From: a virus | Lineage: Duplodnaviria > Caudoviricetes | DNA: 64,000 nt | IMG/VR virus record: IMGVR_UViG_3300008255_000098 | Reading direction: 5' to 3' (one strand) | Part shown: positions 36,185-62,735 of the stretch, piece after piece | How positions within the stretch are numbered: position 1 is the first letter of the stretch | How the letters are laid out: each line of letters opens with the position of its first letter | Notes under the pieces: generated by a model | What the model was told of the DNA's origin: nothing | The model's input: the letters and a program-made list of their open reading frames with translations, nothing else | Database searches by the model: none | Position numbers and translations under genes: made by a program

Positions 36185-36259
36185 GGCCCTATAGTTTAAT
36201 GGTAGAACAGCCGCCTCTCAAGTGGCTAACGGAGGGTTCAATTCCCCCTAGGGTCACCA
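36185..36259 (+). tRNA. tRNA-Glu(CTC)
   Basis: Cloverleaf; anticodon loop CT-CTC-AA; CCA encoded. Confidence 0.9.
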
Positions 36260-36274
36260 AAATAGTAAAATTTG

Positions 36275-36418
36275 TCACAACTCTTTTAGAGGTTGTGAGT
36301 CAATGTTCTCTGAAAACAGAATACGTCTTTATTAGTTTGTCTGTACTAACACCAGTAAACAGACAACTGTAAAGGCGAGTTAGCGTTTGTAAATCATTCA
36401 GTTTACCACGCTCTCGCT
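36275..36418 (+). ncRNA. Candidate structured RNA (four hairpins) between tRNA-Glu and tRNA-Phe
   Basis: TCACAAC/GTTGTGA, TTGTCTGT/ACAGACAA, GCGAG..AGCGT/ACGCT.CTCGC stems. Confidence 0.45.
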
Positions 36419-36425
36419 AATACTT

Positions 36426-36501
36426 GCCAACTAAGCTAATCTGGTGAAAGCACTCGGTTGAAGCCCGAGGTAGCCCGGATCAAAACCGGGAGTTGGTACC
36501 A
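36426..36501 (+). tRNA. tRNA-Phe(GAA)
   Basis: Cloverleaf; TT-GAA-GC loop; T-loop ATCAAAA; CCA. Confidence 0.9.
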
Positions 36502-36595
36502 AATCCAAAATAATAGAATAATAGAATAATAGAATTACCATTCTATAGACCGTCAGGCAGGAATTTTTTTCCTTCTATGAAGGACATAAAATAAT

Positions 36596-36723
36596 AATAC
36601 CGCCAGTTCTTGGCGGTTACATGTGTGGAGCTATAAATAAGACTTCTTCTTTACAAAAGAAGAAGCACAAAGTAGTGAAACCCGAAGCCTAACCCACCGC
36701 CCTAGCGTGGGTGAGTAGTTCAC
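36596..36723 (+). mobile_element. IS605-type TnpB omegaRNA-like scaffold / right end (copy 2, different subfamily)
   Basis: TACCGCCA..TGGCGGTTACATGTGTGGAG..TAAGAC..hairpin..GAAACCCGAAGCC..ACCCAC/GTGGGT..GTAGTTCAC. Confidence 0.65.
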
Positions 36724-36795
36724 AGGTTATTGGTGTAATGCGTAGCACAATGGATTCCAAACCCATTAGTTAGAGTTCGAGTCTCTAGTAGCCTG
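36724..36795 (+). tRNA. tRNA-Trp(CCA)
   Basis: Cloverleaf; TT-CCA-AA loop; followed by CTA rather than CCA. Confidence 0.88.
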
Positions 36796-36865
36796 CTAAT
36801 AATGATAAAAGGTGGGAAACATCTGTCTGGCCAATAATATTGATTGGCTATAGGCCATATATTTT

Positions 36866-36940
36866 AGGATCATAGCATAATCTGGCTAGTGCTCTCCCCT
36901 GTCACGGGAGAATGTGTGGATTCGAATTCCACTGGTCCTG
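36866..36940 (+). tRNA. tRNA-Asp(GTC)
   Basis: CT-GTC-AC loop; followed by CTA. Confidence 0.9.
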
Positions 36941-37069
36941 CTAAATTATCAGCATGATGGAGTAACAGGCAAATTGGCCTAAAATAACATGAAAATTGAG
37001 TTCGAGACGCTTATAATGTGTGGTTTTAGCTCTCGATGATGATAATTCCCCCATTTTATGATGGGGCAT

Positions 37070-37146
37070 GGGCTTTTGGTGTAATGGACAAGCACGTCGG
37101 GCTCTTAACCCGTAAAGTCAGAGTTCGAGTCTCTGGAGGCCCACCA
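37070..37146 (+). tRNA. tRNA-Lys(CTT)
   Basis: CT-CTT-AA loop; CCA. Confidence 0.9.
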
Positions 37147-37174
37147 AATATTTTTCAAGGTTACAAGGAGTCAA

Positions 37175-37447
37175 ATGAAATATAAAGTAGAGTTTGAGGT
37201 CTCAACAGATATAAAATATTCTTCTATAGAAGAATGTATAGAGGACTTTTGGGATCTATTCATTGCAAATGGTCGTCTTACTGTTTTAGAAAATAAAATT
37301 AGATTATTAATTGATATTAAAAAAAATCTAGTTCCTCCAGTAATGCAAAAAGCTGCCAATGAAGCATACAAAAATCAAGAAAATACTTATAACAGTGTAA
37401 AAAACTTTTCTGTTTCTCCTTTAGAAGAAGAAGAAGATAATAAATAA
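37175..37447 (+). CDS. Hypothetical protein
   Basis: ORF track; AGGAG RBS. Confidence 0.6.
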   Translation: MKYKVEFEVSTDIKYSSIEECIEDFWDLFIANGRLTVLENKIRLLIDIKKNLVPPVMQKAANEAYKNQENTYNSVKNFSVSPLEEEEDNK

Positions 37448-37454
37448 ACATTTT

Positions 37455-37526
37455 GCGTCCGTAGTCTAATGGAAGGGCATCGGCCTTCTAAGCCGGGGTG
37501 TGTAGGTTCGAGTCCTACCGGACGTG
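37455..37526 (+). tRNA. tRNA-Arg(TCT)
   Basis: CT-TCT-AA loop; followed by CTA. Confidence 0.9.
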
Positions 37527-37532
37527 CTAATA

Positions 37533-37654
37533 TCATTTAGTGGTAGTTTAGTGGTAGAACACCCGCAGATAACGGCCTGATGCAAGTTTGATTCTTGCAC
37601 ATGTTGGCACTCTGGGGCTTGGAAACACATGTTTGATTCATGCTCACTAAATGA
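37533..37654 (+). ncRNA. tRNA-like RNA with a D-arm and two T-arm-like hairpins
   Basis: 10-bp closing stem TCATTTAGTG/CACTAAATGA; D-arm TAGTTTAGTGGTAGAAC; two GTTTGATTC T-loops. Confidence 0.55.
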
Positions 37655-37660
37655 ATATTT

Positions 37661-37737
37661 CCTGCTGGACGGTTCGGTGTAACCTGCCCTCTCTGATAAA
37701 GAGGGCGCACCAAGTTCAACTCTTGGCAGCAGGACCA
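37661..37737 (+). tRNA. tRNA-Ile(GAT), atypical D-arm
   Basis: CCTGCTG/CAGCAGG acceptor; CT-GAT-AA loop; CCA. Confidence 0.85.
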
Positions 37738-37766
37738 AATAAATTAATAATAGAAAATAGGATAAA

Positions 37767-38354
37767 ATGAAAGATAAAATAGAAGAAATCTGGTTTACAT
37801 CAGATACTCATTTTGGTCATACTAATATATTGAAATATTGTGATAGGCCATTCGCAAACATTGAGGAACACGATGAATATCTAATTTCTCAATGGAATAA
37901 AGCAGTAAAGCCTAACGATAATGTTTATCATTTAGGAGATTTTGCATTTGGAAACGACACGTTTATCAAAAACATCATACGTCGCCTAAATGGAAAAATA
38001 CACTTTATTACTGGTAATCATGATAAAATTATTAACTCTAACAAAACAATACAAGATTCTTTCGCAAGTTATCAACAATATTGCGAAATAAAAGTTTCTA
38101 CAAAAAACAGTAAACAGAAACAATCAATTGTAATGTTTCATTATCCGATAGAATCTTGGAACAAGTGTTATCACGGTGCTTGGCATTTACACGGGCATTG
38201 CCATGGTACTTTTCCTAGTACAAATTTCCAAGCGAGAGTTGATGTAGGAGTGGATATTTGGGAATATACACCAGTCTCATATGAACAAATTAAAAATCAT
38301 ATGAGCGGAAAAGAGTTTAAACCCATAGACCACCATGGTAAAAGAACGAAGTAA
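37767..38354 (+). CDS. Calcineurin-like metallophosphoesterase
   Basis: TSDTHFGH, HLGDFAFG, ITGNHD, MFHYP, HLHGHCH. Confidence 0.9.
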   Translation: MKDKIEEIWFTSDTHFGHTNILKYCDRPFANIEEHDEYLISQWNKAVKPNDNVYHLGDFAFGNDTFIKNIIRRLNGKIHFITGNHDKIINSNKTIQDSFASYQQYCEIKVSTKNSKQKQSIVMFHYPIESWNKCYHGAWHLHGHCHGTFPSTNFQARVDVGVDIWEYTPVSYEQIKNHMSGKEFKPIDHHGKRTK

Positions 38355-38379
38355 CCACTATGCAGCATAGACTGCGCAT

Positions 38380-38454
38380 GGGTCTCTAGCACAACGGCAG
38401 TGCAATGGCCTTTTAAGCCACAGGTTGAGGGTTCGAATCCCTCGGGACCCACCA
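38380..38454 (+). tRNA. tRNA-Lys(TTT)
   Basis: CT-TTT-AA loop; CCA. Confidence 0.9.
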
Positions 38455-38510
38455 AACACTGAAAAGATAAATAACACTGTGTTATATATTTACTGTGTAT
38501 AGGTCATTAA

Positions 38511-39125
38511 ATGAATAATTTCAAAAACATTGCTACTGCAAAGGCAACTAACGATAACAAAAAATTATATGAGGCGAGTCTTGGTAGAATTTGGCAACAT
38601 GTTGTTGAAGCAGATGAAAAATCAATTGCTATACTTACTTCATGGCGAGCAGCAAACAACAAGAAACAAAACCAAAAACAGTTTCAAGATTTAAAAGCTG
38701 CGGTGCGAGGTCTCGGTTTGGGGTTCGTCCAAATAAGAGGGCACTGGAGAGAGTGCCAAAACGACTCTGTTCCGTACGAAAATTGTCCAGAAGAAGAATT
38801 AGTAGATGCAATTGAACCATCACTGTTTATTATTGGAATAAAACAAGAACAAGCAGAGATGTTATCAAATCAATATAAACAAGATGCTTATATTTTTGCT
38901 GGACCTGAATCTAAAGGTAAAGTCGTTTTATTATTCAAAGGCGGCGAGTCAATGGAAATTGGTTCTTTCAAACCCCAAACTTTGGGACAAGCCTATTCGG
39001 AACTAATAAAATCTAAATTAGCTAGTCCAAAATATTTTAAATTTGAAGGAATAGAGTATACTGCACAAACTTGGGTAGAAACTCTAATAGAACAAGAAGT
39101 TAGAAAAACACTAGCAAATATTTAA
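38511..39125 (+). CDS. Hypothetical phage protein
   Basis: ORF track; ATATTTA motif upstream. Confidence 0.65.
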   Translation: MNNFKNIATAKATNDNKKLYEASLGRIWQHVVEADEKSIAILTSWRAANNKKQNQKQFQDLKAAVRGLGLGFVQIRGHWRECQNDSVPYENCPEEELVDAIEPSLFIIGIKQEQAEMLSNQYKQDAYIFAGPESKGKVVLLFKGGESMEIGSFKPQTLGQAYSELIKSKLASPKYFKFEGIEYTAQTWVETLIEQEVRKTLANI

Positions 39126-39134
39126 TAATTCATA

Positions 39135-39202
39135 ATTAGGGTAGCTTAAATAAAGCCTATTGTCGTATAATAGAAGTTCTAGGTCAAATCCTAGTCCTAA
39201 TT
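39135..39202 (+). ncRNA. Degenerate tRNA-like element (truncated D-loop; CGT in the anticodon position)
   Basis: ATTAGGG/TCCTAAT acceptor, CTATT/AATAG anticodon stem, CTAGG/CCTAG T-stem; no D-loop GG, no CCA. Confidence 0.5.
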
Positions 39203-39205
39203 CAT

Positions 39206-39281
39206 TCAGGGTTAGCCATCTGGTGAAAGCACTCGCCTGTTAAGCGAGTCAAGGTGAGTTCGATCCTCACACCCTGAGCCA
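39206..39281 (+). tRNA. tRNA-Asn(GTT)
   Basis: CT-GTT-AA loop; CCA. Confidence 0.92.
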
Positions 39282-39345
39282 GTATACCAATGTGTCTCTT
39301 ATAAAAGCAACAGTGCCAGTGTCACAGGTAAAATATAAATAATAT

Positions 39346-39419
39346 TCGGGGATCGTTCAATGGCAGGACCGGAGACTCTGAATCTCCTTATCTAGGTTCG
39401 AATCCTAGCCCCCGGACCA
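39346..39419 (+). tRNA. tRNA-Gln(CTG)
   Basis: CT-CTG-AA loop; CCA. Confidence 0.9.
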
Positions 39420-39468
39420 GTATTTGTTTAGTACAGCGGAAGATAAATATTTTCACTTAATGTAATAT

Positions 39469-39539
39469 TCGGGATTCGTCTAAAGGCAAGACTATAGGCT
39501 TTGAACCTATGAATGTTAGTTCGATTCTAGCATCCCGAT
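39469..39539 (+). tRNA. tRNA-Gln(TTG)
   Basis: CT-TTG-AA loop; followed by CTA. Confidence 0.9.
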
Positions 39540-39542
39540 CTA

Positions 39543-39729
39543 AAATAGCTTTGCTTTGCTTGGAATCATTTATGTAGTCCGGTCATCCGGTATGTAAACG
39601 GTTAGAAGGTTTGAGTTTGTGTTCAAATAATATTCCTTTGTTTGAAACATTCACGTGTTACGCAACTCTGTTGCGACATAAATGTCTAGAAGATTTAAAA
39701 TCTGGATTACTCTCAAAATATGTTATTTT
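39543..39729 (+). ncRNA. Candidate structured spacer RNA
   Basis: AAATAGC/GTTATTT closing stem; CCGG-TCAT-CCGG, CGCAAC/GTTGCG and AGAT/ATCT hairpins. Confidence 0.4.
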
Positions 39730-39731
39730 TA

Positions 39732-39810
39732 CGGCGTGTAGCCCAGTTTGGTTTAGGGCACCTGCTTTGGGAGCAGGAGGTCGTGGGTTCAAATCCCTCC
39801 ACGCCGACCA
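39732..39810 (+). tRNA. tRNA-Pro(TGG)
   Basis: TT-TGG-GA loop; CCA. Confidence 0.92.
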
Positions 39811-39875
39811 AAATTAAATCCGGTGGTGAGTATTGTGGTCCTAACAAGGATGGTTTTAGGATAATTTTTAATTTT

Positions 39876-39950
39876 GCGTCTGTAGTTCAAAGGACAGAGC
39901 ACGGGTTTCCTAAACCCGGAATGAAGGTTCGAGTCCTTCCAGATGCGCCA
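39876..39950 (+). tRNA. tRNA-Arg(CCT)
   Basis: TT-CCT-AA loop; CCA. Confidence 0.92.
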
Positions 39951-39964
39951 AATTTTTTTATCAT

Positions 39965-40042
39965 CAGTCAGAGTGCCATGAGGTAGGCAACCGCATTCGG
40001 ATTGCGGAAGACGTGTGAGTTCGAATCTCGCCTGACTGACCA
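39965..40042 (+). tRNA. tRNA-Pro(CGG), atypical positions 8-9
   Basis: CAGTCAG/CTGACTG acceptor; TT-CGG-AT loop; CCA. Confidence 0.82.
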
Positions 40043-40050
40043 AAATCTTT

Positions 40051-40213
40051 TCACCTATTATACTATTGATAATAAGCTGCGTCGCAGATTGAATCCTGCG
40101 ATTTTACCATTTATTTTAGGTGGGTCTGTGACGACCGAAGAAGAAAAAGAAGAAGAAGCCCGACCCATCAATTTTTTTGCTCTCTTCTTCTTTATGGGCA
40201 GTCTACTAGGTGA
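40051..40213 (+). ncRNA. Candidate pseudoknotted RNA
   Basis: TCACCTA/TAGGTGA closing stem, TCGCAG/CTGCGA, TGGGTC/GACCCA; loop AAAGAAGAAG complementary to downstream CTTCTTCTTT. Confidence 0.5.
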
Positions 40214-40220
40214 TAAATGG

Positions 40221-40292
40221 GGGGGTTTAATTTAATCGGGAAAATACATGCTTCGCAAGTATGAGTCATGGGATCGTAACCCATAACCTCCA
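40221..40292 (+). tRNA. tRNA-Ala(CGC)
   Basis: G3-U70; TT-CGC-AA loop; T-loop ATCGTAA; followed by CTA. Confidence 0.85.
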
Positions 40293-40379
40293 CTATCCGC
40301 AGTTTAGAAGTGCCAGCTAGGTTAGTGGTTCGTCAAGATGGCTTCCAGATAGCAGGAAGAGTAAAAGAATAAACAATAT

Positions 40380-40465
40380 GTCGATGTGGGGGAATGGCAG
40401 ACCCGCTAGTCTCAGAAGCTAGTTCCCGAAAGGGAGTGCAGGTTCAAGTCCTGTCATCGACACCA
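40380..40465 (+). tRNA. tRNA-Leu(CAG)
   Basis: CT-CAG-AA loop; long variable arm; CCA. Confidence 0.92.
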
Positions 40466-40537
40466 AATTTCGCAAGCTAAAATCCAGGCAATGACTTTGA
40501 ATTATTTGAGAGTTGATGGTTCTCATGCGAAATTTAT

Positions 40538-40622
40538 ACCGACGTGGGGGAATGGCAGACCCGCTAGTCTAAGAAGCTAGTATAGCGAAAGCTGTGTGCG
40601 AGTTCAAGTCTCGCCGTCGGTA
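40538..40622 (+). tRNA. tRNA-Leu(AAG)
   Basis: CT-AAG-AA loop; long variable arm; followed by CAA. Confidence 0.88.
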
Positions 40623-40665
40623 CAAATGTTTTTTCACACAATTTTCAGGTATAAGATAAATTCAT

Positions 40666-40742
40666 GGTGTCCATAGTGTAAACGGTGAACATGGTCGGTT
40701 GTGACCCGGCAGTTAGCGGTTCAAATCCGCTTGGACACACCA
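40666..40742 (+). tRNA. tRNA-His(GTG)
   Basis: TT-GTG-AC loop; G-1 encoded; discriminator A; CCA. Confidence 0.9.
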
Positions 40743-40798
40743 AGGTTTCATAAATATAATGGCGTCACAGTCACTAAATTGGTTTATTTTCGAAACAT

Positions 40799-40874
40799 GC
40801 CCAAGTACGCTAAAGGCAGTGCGGCTTTTCTCAAAAAAAAGTGGTTGTGAGTTCGACTCTCACCTTGGGTACCA
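40799..40874 (+). tRNA. tRNA-Leu(CAA) with short variable loop
   Basis: CTTTT/AAAAG stem, CT-CAA-AA loop, 5-nt variable region; CCA. Confidence 0.82.
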
Positions 40875-40895
40875 AAACAGGAATAAATAAAATCT

Positions 40896-41195
40896 ATGGA
40901 AACAACACCTAAAGCTGGAAAATTATACAAAGTGGTTGGTCCAGCAGAGTTTGTTCCAAATTTAGAAAGTTACGTCAGTTCATCATTCAAGTATCAATTA
41001 TATCGAATAACAGAAGAAATTCCTATAGGGGAAATTTTATTGTTTGTCGAAATACAACAAAACGTTGTTGAAAACAAATATTTACCTACTCTATTTGGTG
41101 ATAAAATAGAAATACTTCTTTACAAGTTCTTGTATGGGGAAAAAATCATTTATTTGGAGTGTTATAATGACGAAATGTTGCGTCAAGTGGAATAA
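40896..41195 (+). CDS. Hypothetical protein (small beta-barrel paralog family)
   Basis: IPIGEILLFV...YKFLYGEKIIYL. Confidence 0.6.
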   Translation: METTPKAGKLYKVVGPAEFVPNLESYVSSSFKYQLYRITEEIPIGEILLFVEIQQNVVENKYLPTLFGDKIEILLYKFLYGEKIIYLECYNDEMLRQVE

Positions 41196-41207
41196 CATTC
41201 AGCCAAA

Positions 41208-41301
41208 TAAACAAAAACGGAATAAGGTGTTGTCACTAGGTGAGTCTAAGACCTTCGAAACTTATCCACGTCAGCTATACTGTCGTGGGAGGGTAATTCA
41301 C
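41208..41301 (+). mobile_element. Truncated omegaRNA-like scaffold / IS right end (copy 3)
   Basis: AAACAAAAACGGAATAAGGTGTTGTCACTAGGTGAGTCTAAGACCTTCGAAAC...GGGTAATTCAC; homologous to copies 1 and 4. Confidence 0.65.
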
Positions 41302-41347
41302 CATAGCCACATGAATAAGTATTATAGATTGCCTAATATTAGGCTGA

Positions 41348-42256
41348 ATGGAAAAAAATATGCGTGCATTAGTTTTAGGTGGAGGAGGCGCTAAGGGCGC
41401 ATTTCAGGCTGGAGTTTTTAAATACCTAGCCGAACAGGGAGAAAAGTTTGAAATCATCTCTGGTACGTCTGTAGGCGCTTTGAACGGGTCTTTCCTGGCT
41501 CAGTATGTTTTAGGTGACGAAGCCAAAGCATCACAGGAGTTAATATCTCTTTGGGAAAAAATCGAAGATAAAAAAATCTATAAGAAATGGTATTTTGGTA
41601 TTCTTGGCAAAGCTCCATTTCTTATGCCAAGATGGCTAGGTGGAAAGAAAAGCATGTTTACCACAAAACCATTAGAAAACAATATCAGTGGACTTTTGGA
41701 TTTGGAAAGAGTTAGAAGTTCAGGACATAAACTCCGAATTAATACAATAAACATAGATACTGGTGAATTAGAAGTGTTTGATGAAGATTTTGACCTGCTC
41801 AAAAAAGCAGTTTTAGCAAGTTCTTCTTTTCCTCCTGCTTTTGCTCCGGTAGAAATCAATGGAATGAGATATTTGGACGCAGGCGCACGAGAAATAGTGC
41901 CAATAGAAGCTGCAATAAAAGCTGGTGCTACAGATATTGTTGTAATTGCTTGTAGCCCATACAATGTAATAGGAAATTTAGCTAAGAAGCCATCAGGGCT
42001 TGATATAGCATTTCGGACAATAGACGCAAGTGGGGTTGAAATAGAAAAATGGGATTTGAAAATTGTTGAATTATATAATGCTTTAATAAAATCTGATAGT
42101 CCAATGGCGGGAGATAAAAAGATAATAAAGGTTACAGTTATTCGTCCAAAACAAGCTTTGTTAAGTGACACTTTAGATTTTAACCCTGAGAGGATCAGAA
42201 CAAATATTGAAAGAGGATATTTAGCTGCACAAGGGTTAGACAAAGTTTTAGAGTGA
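41348..42256 (+). CDS. Patatin-like phospholipase
   Basis: LGGGGAKGAFQAG, GTSVG (GxSxG), YLDAG. Confidence 0.92.
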   Translation: MEKNMRALVLGGGGAKGAFQAGVFKYLAEQGEKFEIISGTSVGALNGSFLAQYVLGDEAKASQELISLWEKIEDKKIYKKWYFGILGKAPFLMPRWLGGKKSMFTTKPLENNISGLLDLERVRSSGHKLRINTINIDTGELEVFDEDFDLLKKAVLASSSFPPAFAPVEINGMRYLDAGAREIVPIEAAIKAGATDIVVIACSPYNVIGNLAKKPSGLDIAFRTIDASGVEIEKWDLKIVELYNALIKSDSPMAGDKKIIKVTVIRPKQALLSDTLDFNPERIRTNIERGYLAAQGLDKVLE

Positions 42257-42307
42257 AATATGTCAGCGAGCCTTGAGCACATAGGGCAAGTCCTACCGCT
42301 GACCCTC

Positions 42308-42382
42308 GCCTCATAAGCATAAATGGTGATGCACCGGCTTTGTAAACCGGAAAATTCGGTTCGATTCCGAAATGAGGCTCCA
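42308..42382 (+). tRNA. tRNA-Thr(TGT)
   Basis: TT-TGT-AA loop; CCA. Confidence 0.9.
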
Positions 42383-42408
42383 AAAAATTCTACTATATTG
42401 TAGAAAAC

Positions 42409-42479
42409 GCCCTGTTAGTATAATGGTATTACCCTCGCCCCGTAAACGAGGAACGTCGGATCGTTACCGACACAGGGCT
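42409..42479 (+). tRNA. tRNA-Thr(CGT)
   Basis: CC-CGT-AA loop (C33); T-loop ATCGTTA; followed by CTA. Confidence 0.85.
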
Positions 42480-42494
42480 CTAAGTTAAAAAAAT

Positions 42495-42569
42495 GCATCC
42501 GTGGTCTAATGGAAGGGCACTGGTCTACGAAACCAGTTCATGTAGGTTCGAATCCTGCCGGATGCGCCA
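42495..42569 (+). tRNA. tRNA-Arg(ACG)
   Basis: CT-ACG-AA loop; CCA. Confidence 0.92.
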
Positions 42570-42737
42570 AACGTATACAGAAAAATATACTAAATTAGTT
42601 TACAAGGCTGGGCGTTAAAAACCCATCCATTTACTTTTAATCCACAGGACGGAGAATTGTTCACCAGGGGTTAAGAACCTTTGATAGAAAGAGCGGAAGT
42701 GCATAAAGTTTTTGTAGAAACAATGAAATAATTTAAC

Positions 42738-42822
42738 AAATATTTTGGTAGCTCTATAATCTTGAGACATATAGGGCTGGTAGGCGAGGTCTCGGCCGGG
42801 TTCGAATCCCGCCAAAATATTT
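42738..42822 (+). ncRNA. tRNA-like RNA with a canonical T-arm and a pseudoknot in place of the D and anticodon arms
   Basis: 11-bp AAATATTTTGG/CCAAAATATTT stem; CGGGTTCGAATCCCG; GCTCTAT/ATAGGGC hairpin whose loop GAGAC pairs with GTCTC. Confidence 0.55.
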
Positions 42823-42896
42823 GCCTTTGTAGTATAATGGTATTACACTTGCCTGGTATGTAAGAAACGAGAGATCGATACTCTCCAAAGGCTCCA
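42823..42896 (+). tRNA. tRNA-Thr(GGT)
   Basis: CT-GGT-AT loop; T-loop ATCGATA; CCA. Confidence 0.88.
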
Positions 42897-43020
42897 AAAA
42901 ATAGTTTTGCGGTATTAATTGAATGGCTTAGTCCTGCTTGAGGTGTTTCTTACGACATTATCTGGTACTCCACTCTTGTTCTTCCAGCCTCTTCAAATAA
43001 GTATGTAACTCATATTTCAT

Positions 43021-43094
43021 GGGCAAATAACTCAGTGGCAGAGTGCCTCTTTTACATGGAGGAAACGGCAGTTCAATCCTGTCTTTGCCTACCA
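43021..43094 (+). tRNA. tRNA-Val(TAC)
   Basis: TT-TAC-AT loop; CCA. Confidence 0.9.
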
Positions 43095-43144
43095 ATAAAA
43101 CCACAGCAGGGAGATTGATTCGATACCAATATTCCGCACTGTAT

Positions 43145-43221
43145 GCACGATGGGCTGGCTGGGATTAGGCACCTTCTCGACATGGAGGATTAGACAGGTT
43201 CAATTCCTGTGTCGTGTACCA
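43145..43221 (+). tRNA. tRNA-Val(GAC)
   Basis: TC-GAC-AT loop (C33); atypical D-arm; CCA. Confidence 0.82.
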
Positions 43222-43349
43222 AATTTTGTAGGCTATGAGCATTATTACAATCTGTGAAGGAAACAAGTATTATATACATCAACAACGTATTTTTAGCGGT
43301 CTTTTTTTTGGCATGTGACACAAAGCTAAAATTTAGCATTTAGAGGTTT

Positions 43350-43592
43350 ATGAAAAAATTAAATTTAGGTATTCTTTATAAAAATGGGAAGGTAGTAGAT
43401 CATCGTTCAGCTTTACAGGTTTTTTTAAATCCCTTTTTACGAACAGCGGGATTTGAAATTTGCTCTATCTTTTTAGATGGGGAATTTGACAAATACGAAG
43501 TTAGAAAACTAGAAAAGGCGCAAGAATTTAATTTTGATTTATATTCTTGGAATGATTTTGATGAGGTAGAAAAGAAAAGACGAATAATATAA
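43350..43592 (+). CDS. Hypothetical protein
   Basis: ORF track; GAGG RBS. Confidence 0.55.
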   Translation: MKKLNLGILYKNGKVVDHRSALQVFLNPFLRTAGFEICSIFLDGEFDKYEVRKLEKAQEFNFDLYSWNDFDEVEKKRRII

Positions 43593-43596
43593 ATTT

Positions 43597-43667
43597 GCGG
43601 GTATGGTATAATGATATTATGTTTGGTTTCCACCCAAAGGATCTGAGTTTGATTCTCAGTACCCGCT
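43597..43667 (+). tRNA. tRNA-Gly(TCC)
   Basis: TT-TCC-AC loop; followed by CTA. Confidence 0.88.
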
Positions 43668-43689
43668 CTAAGTTAGTCAAATATTATTT

Positions 43690-43765
43690 CGGGCGTTAGT
43701 GAAAAGGATAATCACGCAGAACTCCGAATTCTGTATTACAAGTTCGATTCTTGTACGCTCGGCCA
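43690..43765 (+). tRNA. tRNA-Arg(CCG)
   Basis: CT-CCG-AA loop; CCA. Confidence 0.9.
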
Positions 43766-43880
43766 AATAATCTATGAAGCCTTATAGATAGTGGTTACAC
43801 ATGAGACTAGACTGGCGGTGGTTACACGCATTGTATCGTGTTTATGTGTAACCGTGTGGTCGCTCCACGATAGATTATTT
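43766..43880 (+). ncRNA. Candidate structured spacer RNA with a duplicated GTGGTTACAC motif
   Basis: 11-bp AAATAATCTAT/ATAGATTATTT closing stem; GGTTACAC (two copies) complementary to GTGTAACC. Confidence 0.5.
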
Positions 43881-43883
43881 TTT

Positions 43884-43954
43884 GCCTACGTTCTTAGGTT
43901 GAGAGCAAACGTTTCATAAGCGTTTTGGTGAAGGTTCGAATCTTTCCGTAGGCA
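43884..43954 (+). tRNA. tRNA(CAT), elongator Met or Ile2; reduced D-arm
   Basis: GCCTACG/CGTAGGC acceptor; TT-CAT-AA loop; no initiator GGG/CCC pairs; followed by CTA. Confidence 0.8.
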
Positions 43955-43977
43955 CTAATATTTCAATAATGAAATAT

Positions 43978-44048
43978 GCGGGATTGGTATAAAGGTATTA
44001 CACGACATTGCCAATGTTGAGACATCGGATCGTTTCCGATATCCCGCT
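43978..44048 (+). tRNA. tRNA-Gly(GCC)
   Basis: TT-GCC-AA loop; T-loop ATCGTTT; followed by CAA. Confidence 0.88.
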
Positions 44049-44081
44049 CAAAAATAACATTCTAAAATAGGAAATAATATC

Positions 44082-44534
44082 ATGTATATTGTAGAAAAAA
44101 ATTCCAAAAAAAAGGTAGATGCGGAAGAATGGTTTGAATTCGAATCATATGGAAAAATTATATATGACCCGCCTCGGCCAGGAATGAAAAAAAATAAAGA
44201 TTGGTGGGTTATCTTTTCTGTAGATCGTGAAATAACAAGATATTTTCGTTGGCAAATTTTGTGGAATTGGGGAATTAAATTATACCAACCGTCTTGGGAC
44301 GCACATATTTCTATTATTAGAGGCGAACGTCCTGCAAATGATAAGATGCATCTTTGGAAGAAATTTCATGGGCAAAAGTTCAAATTCAAGTATTCAAATA
44401 AAGTATTTCAGGCTGACAATAAGCCAGAATTCTGGTACATACACGCACAGAGTCCGATTATCAAGGAAATACGTGAAGATTTTGGATTTCAATCAGATTG
44501 GACATCTCATATAACAGTTGGAAAAACATGTTAA
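44082..44534 (+). CDS. 2H phosphoesterase family protein
   Basis: Two HxS/T motifs: AHISII and SHITVG. Confidence 0.75.
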   Translation: MYIVEKNSKKKVDAEEWFEFESYGKIIYDPPRPGMKKNKDWWVIFSVDREITRYFRWQILWNWGIKLYQPSWDAHISIIRGERPANDKMHLWKKFHGQKFKFKYSNKVFQADNKPEFWYIHAQSPIIKEIREDFGFQSDWTSHITVGKTC

Positions 44535-44563
44535 CAAATGTAACAAACTGGTTTACAACTTTT

Positions 44564-44598
44564 ATTAACTACCCACCCGCAACGGGTGGGTAGTTAAT
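44564..44598. repeat. Perfect 16-bp inverted repeat resembling IS200/IS605 end hairpins
   Basis: ATTAACTACCCACCCG-CAA-CGGGTGGGTAGTTAAT; GGTGGGTAGTT is shared with the end of copy 1. Confidence 0.75.
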
Positions 44599-44600
44599 CT

Positions 44601-44730
44601 AACGGCATTGCACATTTAAATTTTGATGGGGGTTAGTTCTAATCCTTCAATTGATTATATAGAATGCGTATATATTGGTGCAAGCTCATCTAAAGCCGCA
44701 CAGGCTAGAAAATTAGTGGCAAATGCTGTT
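44601..44730 (+). ncRNA. Candidate structured RNA upstream of tRNA-Ala(GGC)
   Basis: AACGGCATT/AATGCTGTT closing stem; TATATA/TATATA, AGCC/GGCT and GGGTTA/TAATCC hairpins. Confidence 0.4.
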
Positions 44731-44769
44731 TATCCAAAAGGTTATACACCTGGCAATTGAAACTTTTTT

Positions 44770-44841
44770 GGGGGTATGGTGTCAATGGGAACACGCTGAC
44801 TTGGCTAGCCAGAGTTTTGAGTTCGAGTCTCAATATCTCCA
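44770..44841 (+). tRNA. tRNA-Ala(GGC)
   Basis: G3-U70; TT-GGC-TA loop; followed by CTA. Confidence 0.85.
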
Positions 44842-44851
44842 CTAAATAAAT

Positions 44852-58718: not shown

Positions 58719-59081
58719 GGGGATAAATTGGATTCGACTTGGGAAACAACGGAACAATAACGTTGTAGTGGATGTTCACGCCCACTTAAATATCGTGAAC
58801 AAATATAAATGCAGATAATGCACCACTTGCTCTTGCTGCCTAAAAAACACTAGAGCCGTTGAACGGATAATGTGCTTCGATTACCGGGAAATGTCATTTT
58901 AGAGGCTAGACGAAATTACCATTGGATTGCTTTTGAGTAATTAGTTTAAATTAGTAAAAGTAAGAACCCGCTGTAGATGCTTGTAGCTTAGATGCGGAAA
59001 ATCTAAAATCAGGATAGACAACGTAAATGTTTTTCTAGAAGTTCTTGAGGACGAGGGCATCGAAGCCCTCTATCTCCACCA
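58719..59081 (+). ncRNA. ssrA: tmRNA (SsrA), tag peptide ADNAPLALAA
   Basis: 5' GGGGATAAATTGGATTCGAC pairs with 3' TATCTCC-A-CCA including G3-U70; tag ORF gca..gcc-taa at 58811-58843. Confidence 0.93.
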
Positions 59082-60979: not shown

Positions 60980-61134
60980 TTTTTTTAAACATTGTAAAAA
61001 AAGTATGATAGGATATTGAAATGTCTAAAGAATTTTTGTAAGTTTTAAATCGTGGACCTCCTTTTGAACTCGGTAAAGTAATTTGTCGAAGTAGATTTGG
61101 TTTAAAAAATATAAAATATTAAAAGGAGTTAAAA

Positions 61135-61614
61135 ATGAATCCACAAAATAAAAAACAGTTATCGGCACTTAGAGGCGCAATCAAAGGATTGGCCTATTCT
61201 GGACAAGAAATTCGAACAAGAAATATTGCCACTAGTAAAGGTGAGCAAAAATATGAAGCATGGGCGCTAAAGCGTTCTATCGGACATGTAGCTAGATGTC
61301 ATTTATTGGCTTATGGTTTGTCAAGAGGACAAACACGAGAACAAGTAGAAAAGTCTGGCAAAAGAAAAAAGCTAATATATTTGGATAGCTATTTTACAGC
61401 TGACAGAACGTACATATATGGATTTAACGCAAAAAAATATGTACAAGATATTTTATACATATTGTCTGTATATAAAATTCTTCCATATGATTGTGACCAG
61501 CGGGCCATAGAAAAATGGCTTGCTGATGGAAATAAAAAGCTTATTTCTTTTGAAGACCGGGAAACCAGAAAGCTGTATAAACTCAAAGATGCTAGTATGT
61601 CATGGCTAAGATAA
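61135..61614 (+). CDS. Hypothetical phage protein
   Basis: ORF track; AGGAG RBS; ARCHLLAYGL motif. Confidence 0.6.
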   Translation: MNPQNKKQLSALRGAIKGLAYSGQEIRTRNIATSKGEQKYEAWALKRSIGHVARCHLLAYGLSRGQTREQVEKSGKRKKLIYLDSYFTADRTYIYGFNAKKYVQDILYILSVYKILPYDCDQRAIEKWLADGNKKLISFEDRETRKLYKLKDASMSWLR

Positions 61615-61952
61615 AAAAAATGTATGTTCTAGTAAGACAAGATTTAGGTGCGGGCTATCAAATTCCACAAGCAATTCATGCTAAAGATAAATTTAGTCAC
61701 GAACATGCCAAAATTGAACATTCGTGGTATGAAGAATCTAATACTATTGCAGTATTAGGTGTAGATAATGAAGAACATTTGTTAGGAATAACACAACACA
61801 TAAATGAGTTAGGACTGAAGTTTTCTTTATTTTTTGAGCCAGATATTCAAGAATATACTTCTGTTGCCATAGAACCTGGAGATAAAACATCCGAAATACT
61901 CAAAGTGCTCAAAAGAGCTTGCGGCGGAAAGAGAAAAAGAAATAGAAAATAG
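61602..61952 (+). CDS. Pth2-like peptidyl-tRNA hydrolase family protein
   Basis: MYVLVRQDL...QAIHA, SNTIAVL, FFEPDI..YTSVAIEP. Confidence 0.65.
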   Translation: MAKIKKMYVLVRQDLGAGYQIPQAIHAKDKFSHEHAKIEHSWYEESNTIAVLGVDNEEHLLGITQHINELGLKFSLFFEPDIQEYTSVAIEPGDKTSEILKVLKRACGGKRKRNRK

Positions 61953-61957
61953 ACTCT

Positions 61958-62137
61958 ATATCATAATATTGACGCAATACGGTAGAAGACGTATGTGGTT
62001 GCAAGTTTTGGATCAGTTTGTGTCTCACACAATCCAAGGAGTTTGATCCCTTAATCCTTTTAATTAGGATTTGATGTTGAACGACCAATCAGCCTAAGTG
62101 TACATAGGAGCGTAGTAACGCCGCAATATTTTGATGT
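61958..62137 (+). ncRNA. Candidate multi-hairpin structured RNA upstream of the suppressor tRNA
   Basis: About 15-bp closing stem plus seven internal hairpins (see findings). Confidence 0.55.
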
Positions 62138-62142
62138 AGTAT

Positions 62143-62220
62143 GGGGCCTTGGCAGAAAACTGGAAATGCGGTTGACTTTAAATCGACTTTATGCGGGTTC
62201 AATCCCCGCAGGCCCTACCA
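62143..62220 (+). tRNA. tRNA with TTA anticodon (ochre suppressor candidate)
   Basis: GGGGCCT/AGGCCCT acceptor, GTTGA-CT-TTA-AA-TCGAC anticodon arm, GCGGG-TTCAATC-CCCGC T-arm, CCA. Confidence 0.88.
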
Positions 62221-62264: not shown

Positions 62265-62735
62265 ATGAGCGAAATAAATTATATTTTAGGAAATGCTGTT
62301 GAGCCTATTGGAGTTGATAATAAAATTATTGTTCATGTGTGTAATGATATTGGCGCATGGGGCGCAGGGTTTGTACTAGCCGTTTCAAAAAAATGGCCGC
62401 ACATTAAAAAAGAATATCTTTCATTGTTTAAAGATTATAAAAAACCTATTTTAGGAAGTGTACAATTCGTTGTGGCCGAAAAAAAAATAGTTATTGCTAA
62501 TCTTATAGGACAAGAGGGGATTGGAAGGAAAAATTCACCTATCCGCTATGTTGCTATTGAAAGAGGCTTAGAACAAATAAAAGAACTAGCTGAAAAGTAT
62601 AATACATCTATTCATATGCCTAGAATTGGTTGCGGACTCGCTGGCGGAAAATGGGAAGAAATAGAAGCAATAATTGAACGAGTTTTTGAAAAATCAAAAG
62701 TTAAAATTATTGTATATGATTTAAGCACGGAATAA
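62265..62735 (+). CDS. Macrodomain protein (DarG/TARG1-like ADP-ribosylhydrolase)
   Basis: IVHVCNDIGAWGAGFV, IHMPRIGCGLAGGKW. Confidence 0.88.
   Translation: MSEINYILGNAVEPIGVDNKIIVHVCNDIGAWGAGFVLAVSKKWPHIKKEYLSLFKDYKKPILGSVQFVVAEKKIVIANLIGQEGIGRKNSPIRYVAIERGLEQIKELAEKYNTSIHMPRIGCGLAGGKWEEIEAIIERVFEKSKVKIIVYDLSTE

Follow-up and report, generated by a model that had tools for sequence, protein, structure and literature searches.

Transfer RNAs whose anticodons match stop codons are known from phages which keep the standard genetic code. A tRNA with the anticodon UUA was reported for 51 of 51 Lak megaphage genomes, which use the standard code (PMC8346664), for Bacillus phage G (PMC12484599) and for Klebsiella phage phiKp24 (PMC8386662), and in the crAss-like phage OKSC01000115 the TTG anticodon of a tRNA-Gln is mutated to TTA (PMC7886860). 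XacN1 and Atu_ph07 are likewise standard-code phages with stop-anticodon tRNAs (CUA, UCA). As at the locus described here, the stop anticodon occurs in these published cases in a genome still using that stop, and the tRNAs were previously left unexplained or were termed incipient recoding. In recoded phages (TAG to Gln, TGA to Trp; 10.1101/2021.08.26.457843) a phage-encoded suppressor tRNA also overrides a host stop; there hundreds of genes depend on the tRNA, whereas here one leader codon appears to do so. The classical E. coli ochre suppressors supB (Gln), supG/supL (Lys) and supC (Tyr) carry the anticodon UUA as well (Eggertsson and Soll 1988, as cited in PMC8386662). They read both UAA and UAG, as the tRNA described here probably does by wobble, and, strong ochre suppression being harmful, are for the most part weak. 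However, they are laboratory mutants of sense tRNAs, whereas the phage tRNA is natural, conserved and without a close sense-tRNA relative.

On the side of the regulated genes, the closest described systems are arrest-peptide leaders and prfB. The motifs RGPP and RAPP arrest ribosomes robustly and resist EF-P; proteomes avoid them, and leaders that regulate a downstream gene employ them (PMC12992588, PMC10951233, PMC7897499). In ApdA, ApdP, ApcA and the RGPP leaders of Streptomyces the arrest motif is located in a small upstream ORF (PMC7897499, PMC10951233, PMC12992588), and the same holds for the phage leader reported here, where sequestering of the Shine-Dalgarno sequence is predicted. The phage leader differs from these peptides in that its motif lies behind an in-frame stop and is reachable only by readthrough, in that its input would be suppression versus termination and not protein export, and in that its output would be a Pth2-like operon. 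The prfB gene, encoding RF2, is autoregulated via an in-frame UGA and a +1 frameshift. Both prfB and the phage leader have an early in-frame stop which ties, or in the phage would tie, expression to termination competing with an alternative event; in the phage, decoding by a dedicated tRNA would take the place of the +1 frameshift, and the regulated genes are not release factors. While a UUA tRNA in a standard-code phage is already published, the literature searched contained no link between Pth2 and a suppressor tRNA and no description of the module of leader, gene X, Pth2-like gene and stop-anticodon tRNA.

The stretch of DNA analysed here, referred to as the window, comprises 64,000 nt with 34.7% G+C and originates from an uncultured giant groundwater phage. 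It encodes DnaE, TerL, a CCA-adding enzyme, AsnB, AsnRS and tmRNA, and one of the proteins encoded in it is also recorded on a 200,117-bp contig. The features relevant for the locus are the following:

58719-59081, plus strand: phage tmRNA (Rfam RF00023, 106.4 bits)
61021-61041, plus strand: leader ORF, ATG and five codons (M-S-K-E-F-L) followed by TAA at 61039-61041; same type in relatives
61042-61122, plus strand: extension of the leader by readthrough, V-L-N-R-G-P-P plus 20 codons, from reading of the frame
61058-61067, plus strand: predicted anti-Shine-Dalgarno arm (Pro-Pro codons with the bases that follow), pairing with 61119-61128 in the MFE fold
61119-61128, plus strand: Shine-Dalgarno region of gene X (AAGGAG at 61123-61128), predicted to be sequestered in the MFE fold
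61135-61614, plus strand: gene X, 159-aa helical protein, ATG at 61135, 13-nt overlap with the Pth2-like gene
61602-61952, plus strand: Pth2-like gene, 116 aa, no in-frame stop in this genome, assigned by profile and fold
61953-62142, plus strand: structured spacer RNA between the stop of the Pth2-like gene and the tRNA
62143-62220, plus strand: tRNA with the anticodon UUA and encoded CCA (ARAGORN, Rfam, direct reading of the sequence)

A total of 31 tRNA genes was called in the window by ARAGORN, 30 of them as an array at 36185-44842. The remaining one, called as tRNA-Stop (tta) at 62143-62220 (+), is located 17 kb beyond the final tRNA of the main array (44842) and scored 52.6 bits against Rfam RF00005 (gathering score 29), which places it in the tRNA family. 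Its acceptor stem consists of seven pairs (GGGGCCU/AGGCCCU) with G1.U72 and is followed by A73 and the encoded CCA; the D stem has three pairs plus G13.A22, and the anticodon stem has five pairs (GUUGA/UCGAC). The seven bases of the anticodon loop (C-U-UUA-A-A, 62176-62182) include the anticodon at 62178-62180 and are canonical (U33, A37), as expected by sequence for an ochre suppressor tRNA. The variable loop has five bases, the T loop reads UUCAAUC and the T arm is normal. These readings bear out the description in an earlier note on this DNA, made from the letters alone, of an intact UUA tRNA with encoded CCA outside the main array, with a short variable loop, G1-U72 and A73. The same note had asked for confirmation of the anticodon base and had named a misread GTA as the alternative. 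Logan contigs from three more groundwater/aquifer runs (X3, X4, X5) span the anticodon with zero differences, and three independent assemblies without a difference exclude a sequencing error of this kind; as the three samples probably contain the same phage population, their identity is no evidence of conservation. On these sequence grounds, the best explanation for 62143-62220 is a working tRNA which would decode UAA in competition with the host release factors. Aminoacylation and insertion at UAA are supported indirectly, by the covariation of the anticodon with the leader stop described below.

The published UUA tRNAs of phage G (L014:2198-2271) and phiKp24 (L025:1612-1696, minus strand) were re-found, both with C37 and with the loops CCUUACG and UUUUACG, respectively. 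The phiKp24 tRNA reached 26.8 bits, which is under the Rfam cut-off, and the tRNA of the window is the cleaner one. In contrast to the published suppressor-type tRNAs of phages, the tRNA in the window has a conserved likely cis target, and it has no sequence similarity to the UUA tRNA genes of phage G and phiKp24. The 'Sup-TTA' tRNAs of the two phages share an unusual anticodon arm (CYUUC / YYUUACG / GAARG) and may not be ordinary decoders. In phage G, the UUA-type tRNA is located 55 nt upstream of tmRNA (L014:2198-2634).

The phage uses the standard code (code 11). Among 89 crudely called genes, which cover 82% of the window, 54 end in TAA, 22 in TGA and 13 in TAG; TAA thus remains in use as a stop, as the earlier note had stated. 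Likewise in line with that note, dnaE, terL and asnB are uninterrupted in code 11, and DnaE, TerL, AsnB, AsnRS and the CCA-adding enzyme all show full Pfam/NCBIfam coverage. Reading TAA as sense gave no meaningful gain in coding density in the 64-kb window, and the same was true for any stop. A TAA-recoded phage was rejected for the 64-kb window, as there is neither an in-frame TAA in conserved genes nor a gain in density. Back-up stops were not enriched in the window, the median distance to the next in-frame stop being 8 codons after TAA-ended genes and 9 codons after TGA-ended genes. In 32 of 53 cases a TAA-ended gene has another TAA as its next stop in frame; the median distance to a TGA is 42 codons. 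The same-frame downstream neighbours inspected each have their own start codon and give no signal of an extension. The phage is thus not recoded, and an adaptation to strong suppression is not visible. Since a UAA-reading tRNA would hit 54 TAA-ended genes which lack protective back-ups, its activity would be low or its main role would lie elsewhere.

A putative specific target, which the earlier note had missed, is an ORF with an in-frame TAA 1.1 kb upstream of the tRNA on the same strand. This leader has a ribosome-binding site (AGGA, 7 nt upstream), and its TAA lies 94 nt upstream of gene X. The RGPP codons (61051-61062) are located three codons past the leader TAA and 73 nt before the start of X, and a second TAA in the leader frame (61120-61122) abuts the AAGGAG of X, 12 nt before its start. 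A small ORF with RGPP upstream of X corresponds by sequence to a RAPP/RGPP arrest-peptide leader. The MFE fold, calculated for 61005-61150, predicts a pairing between the Pro-Pro codons and the Shine-Dalgarno region of X. The predicted duplex of -12.2 kcal/mol is equalled by 13 of 47 other ribosome-binding regions and is unexceptional in the window because any Pro-Pro pair complements a Shine-Dalgarno sequence, and the fold of the leader region as a whole is no better than that of shuffled sequences (z -0.95). An equivalent Pro-Pro/Shine-Dalgarno pairing is nevertheless predicted in nine of nine leaders, in which the flanking complementary bases differ, and in the relatives it is clearly stronger than the pairing at other ribosome-binding sites.

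In at least 12 loci a homologue of gene X immediately precedes the Pth2-like gene, and the two genes overlap or abut in most relatives. No Pfam or NCBIfam family and no fold match was found for X, and only an N-terminal helical hairpin is confident in its AF2 model. The fold of its partner is that of Pth2 (PF01981; PDB 2zv3, 3erj, 1q7s): the AF2 model (pLDDT 91.7) aligned by Foldseek with TM 0.70-0.76 to archaeal Pth2 and human Bit1 (E 7e-7 and TM 0.75 to 3erj), and a profile match to PDB 2zv3 was obtained with E 4e-9. The phage protein differs from the Pth2 family in that it falls below the NCBIfam Pth2 cut-off (E 1.7e-5, 24.9 bits vs 126), in that PGY stands in place of the longer GKGK loop and EPD in place of DAGxT, and in that it is always coupled to the helical X. 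Based on the model, the protein is a candidate hydrolase with a Pth2 fold in which two canonical, presumably active-site motifs are replaced.

In order to find related loci, homologues of the Pth2-like protein were aligned, which led to 21 loci from JGI metagenomes; tRNAs were called by ARAGORN, and in the majority of the loci of sufficient length the tRNA next to the Pth2-like gene had a stop anticodon. A stop-anticodon tRNA adjoins the Pth2-like gene in 19 of 24 fetched related loci (20 with the window), at a distance of 7 to 759 nt in 17 of the 20. The related loci (1-12 kb each) have normal coding density under the standard code. The tRNA beside the Pth2-like gene has the anticodon UUA in L036, L038 (two copies) and L040 (from a 461-kb contig), and CUA in L041, L043, L047, L048 and L051-L056. 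In L044 (1988-2061), L045 and L046, CUA is found within an eight-base loop (C-U-U-C-U-A-A-U) directly after the Pth2-like gene; the leader of these three loci reads M-N-S-L-F-TAG, with no clear RGPP. In cultured phages, tblastn found the Pth2-like protein in 206 Mycobacterium phage records, and Bxz1, Myrna and the 735-kb phage LR756501 have a CUA tRNA 129 to ~2200 nt downstream of the Pth2-like gene.

Upstream of X, a leader of the form H-F-W-stop-I-F/Y-x-R-G-P-P is present in eight relatives. RGPP is encoded by synonymous codons in nine loci (CGT, CGA, CGC or AGA for Arg; GGA, GGT or GGC for Gly), which argues that the frame past the stop is translated and selected as a peptide. The leader stop corresponds to the anticodon of the linked tRNA. 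A leader TAA occurs with a UUA tRNA in the window, L036, L038, L040, L075 and L073, and a leader TAG with a CUA tRNA in L041, L043, L047, L062, L065, L066, L070 and L074, with no mismatch in ~14 loci. Seven of these loci were obtained in a blind scan of IMG/VR with a pattern allowing either stop, namely L073 and L075 (TAA/UUA) and L062, L065, L066, L070 and L074 (TAG/CUA). A further form of matching is seen in Bxz1, Myrna, L051 and L059, where Pth2-like genes with TAG at codon 2-5 pair with CUA tRNAs; an internal in-frame stop as in these amber versions is absent from the Pth2-like gene of the window. With 5-6 against 8 loci and no mismatch, a match by chance is unlikely at face value, although the loci form a TAA/UUA clade and a TAG/CUA clade, so that few independent switches may underlie the perfect match.

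The tRNAs themselves were compared as well. Those of L040 and L038, located 258-262 nt after the Pth2-like gene, are orthologues of the window tRNA and share with it UUA, the D arm and the loops of both the D and the T arm. Among the three, 6 of the 20 stem pairs are nevertheless changed on both sides, and 98% of the cells pair. Such compensatory changes with retention of UUA indicate a genuine tRNA maintained by selection. UUA also occurs in L036 and L038 on a second scaffold, which has a tRNA-Glu-like acceptor (GUCCCC) and bears CUA in L041, L043, L047 and L048; in L073, UUA is found on a third scaffold. The joint change of two sites that lie apart, together with UUA on three scaffolds, points to a functional link between leader stop and tRNA. 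In L073 the leader, X and the UUA tRNA persist though the Pth2-like gene is largely replaced. This 51.8-kb IMG/VR contig is 99.8% identical to L002 from the leader across X as far as nt 45 of the Pth2-like gene, beyond which it diverges from L002 and runs into the UUA tRNA; L073 is either a natural variant without the hydrolase or an assembly join.

Taken from the sequence, the tRNA is probably the trans-acting key of a stop-codon-gated leader switch for X and the Pth2-like gene and not a sign of code change. By default, ribosomes would terminate at the leader TAA, the ribosome-binding site of X would stay paired with the Pro-Pro codons and X would be silent. Where the UUA tRNA decodes the leader TAA, the ribosome would continue for three codons into R-G-P-P, and a ribosome arrested there would sit on the anti-Shine-Dalgarno arm and free the binding site of X. 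Alternatively, the ribosome may run as far as the second TAA, which lies 12 nt ahead of the X start. By either route X would be made, together with the translationally coupled Pth2-like protein, and the output of the switch would depend on how well the suppressor competes with termination by RF1 and RF2. While anatomy, conservation, the matching of anticodon and stop and the compensatory changes of the tRNA can be read directly, readthrough, arrest and unmasking of the binding site are what we infer from them. The purpose is a matter of speculation; we favour a monitor of termination capacity or of suppressor activity which would tune a peptidyl- or aminoacyl-tRNA hydrolase. Possible tasks of X and the Pth2-like protein are recycling peptidyl-tRNA, discharging the suppressor or freeing stalled chains. 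A wider reading is put forward tentatively, as a possibility: large phages would possess a self-contained switch in which a suppressor tRNA devoted to this task, with UUA here and CUA elsewhere, competes with host release factors at one leader stop, readthrough leads to arrest at RGPP and turns on the Pth2-like gene and its partner, and the phage thereby senses termination capacity or the activity of the suppressor itself.

Among other explanations, the tRNA could be a general weak ochre/amber suppressor which serves to make extended isoforms, to sabotage host termination or to buffer nonsense mutations, the leader only monitoring it and tuning the Pth2-like clean-up. A tRNA that reads UAA will do so at every UAA stop, the genes for tmRNA and the Pth2-like protein are located nearby in the window, L040 and L038, the Lak phages universally have UUA tRNAs without recoding (PMC8346664), and a leader acting as a sensor is compatible with such a role. 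However, TAA-ended genes have neither conserved extensions nor special back-up stops, and apart from the leader stop no conserved feature covaries with the anticodon, so that we consider a general suppressor unlikely. The earlier note had proposed conditional readthrough with a link to tmRNA and Pth; both fit the leader TAA and the neighbourhood with tmRNA and a Pth2-like gene, whereas genome-wide timed C-terminal extensions are not supported in the window, where special back-up stops after TAA genes are lacking and the neighbours have their own starts. The suggestion of that note that an early stage of code change is seen here is not supported either. TAA might be becoming sense in some (late) genes outside the window, as the change of Gln TTG to TTA in the crAss-like phage was called 'pre-emergence' (PMC7886860) and recoding in phages can be limited to late genes (Borges et al., 10.1101/2021.08.26.457843). 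Against this stand TAA as the commonest stop, intact TerL and replication genes, a density gain of nil, the conservation of the anticodon across diverged standard-code relatives (UUA is kept in phages whose Pth2-like proteins are 51-62% identical and which also use TAA as a stop) and zero cases of TAA recoding in 10,754 jumbo phages (PMC13037316). The statement that no UAA reassignment is established in phages agrees with PMC13037316 and PMC8346664, and incipient or partial recoding is regarded as highly improbable.

Descent from tRNA-Tyr by a change of G34 to U, with insertion of tyrosine, had been proposed from the resemblance of the anticodon arm, and the A36-A37-A38 context and A73 are indeed alike; moreover, ARAGORN confirmed that there is no tRNA-Tyr in the window. 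The bacterial tRNA-Tyr, however, has a long (class II) variable arm in place of the five bases found here, and the best tRNA of the window is at most 67% alike. Among the three orthologues the discriminator base varies (A, G, U), which speaks against a synthetase needing A73, such as TyrRS or LeuRS. No close relative of the region or of the tRNA was found in cultured phages by blastn, none was found in IMG/VR by the exact tRNA pattern, single neighbouring proteins or TerL, and no cellular relative was found in 185,579 species genomes by the pattern of T arm and 3' acceptor, where the single match is a chance hit and not a tRNA. A mutated tRNA-Tyr is hence very improbable. A role without decoding, for example as an anticodon-nuclease decoy, as an element of transcript processing or stability or as a non-ribosomal carrier, would accord with the ability of phage tRNAs to counter tRNA-targeting defences and with the structured spacer, plus a tRNA-like minihelix in relatives, that precedes the tRNA. 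It is nonetheless very unlikely, as the loop is fully canonical (U33, A37) and the covariation of the anticodon with an mRNA stop codon is explained only by decoding.

If such a stop-gated switch exists in large phages, it would explain why standard-code phages keep suppressor tRNAs. The locus offers such a tRNA a concrete, conserved and anticodon-matched target and a mechanism which is testable by simple reporters; the mycobacteriophages Bxz1 and Myrna, which have the amber form and are in culture, bring the idea within reach of laboratory work. The switch would be a natural counterpart of the device of synthetic biology in which a suppressor tRNA gates one gene, and with it the balance of termination and readthrough would become a new input for regulation by arrest peptides.

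Several observations concern the surroundings of the tRNA. Nothing resembling a terminator was detected between the operon and the tRNA, and a promoter scan gave fewer consensus sites than in shuffled sequences. The spacer at 61953-62142 has an MFE of -49.2 kcal/mol (z -2.7 vs shuffles) and matched no Rfam family. The spacers of L040 (6334-6591) and L038 (3616-3877) are ~260 nt long and well conserved between the two, also without an Rfam family; they end in a tRNA-like minihelix, consisting of a T arm and an acceptor followed by ACCA or ACAA, from which the UUA tRNA is separated by 3-4 nt. The order tmRNA, Pth2-like gene, UUA tRNA was seen by ARAGORN and Rfam in the window, L040 (tmRNA at 794-1145) and L038 (1-122), with the tmRNA 3-5 kb upstream. 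A macro-domain (DarG-like) protein is encoded at 62265-62735, 45 nt beyond the tRNA; with more than 8000 representatives at E <0.001 its family is too large to be informative, and this neighbour was discarded as a clue to the tRNA.

Near UUA tRNAs, a GluRS catalytic domain (~290 aa) without an anticodon-binding domain is encoded in L036 (2784-3677), L040 (7950-8810) and L038 (4936-5067). The best NCBIfam match of this mini-GluRS is bacterial GluRS and the second is GluQRS, and its large family is often found on contigs of 100-460 kb. Such an enzyme could charge a suppressor regardless of its anticodon; it was not found in the 64-kb window, and among the best 120 matches listed for the family none is on the 200,117-bp contig. 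Bacterial tRNA-Leu is expected to have a long variable arm. In the main array, the tRNA with the anticodon CAA (Leu by anticodon, 40799-40874) has just 76 nt and a short variable loop, and several tRNAs at 36724-44842 (among them Trp, Asp, Arg-TCT and Gly-TCC) lack an encoded CCA and carry C-T-A after the discriminator.
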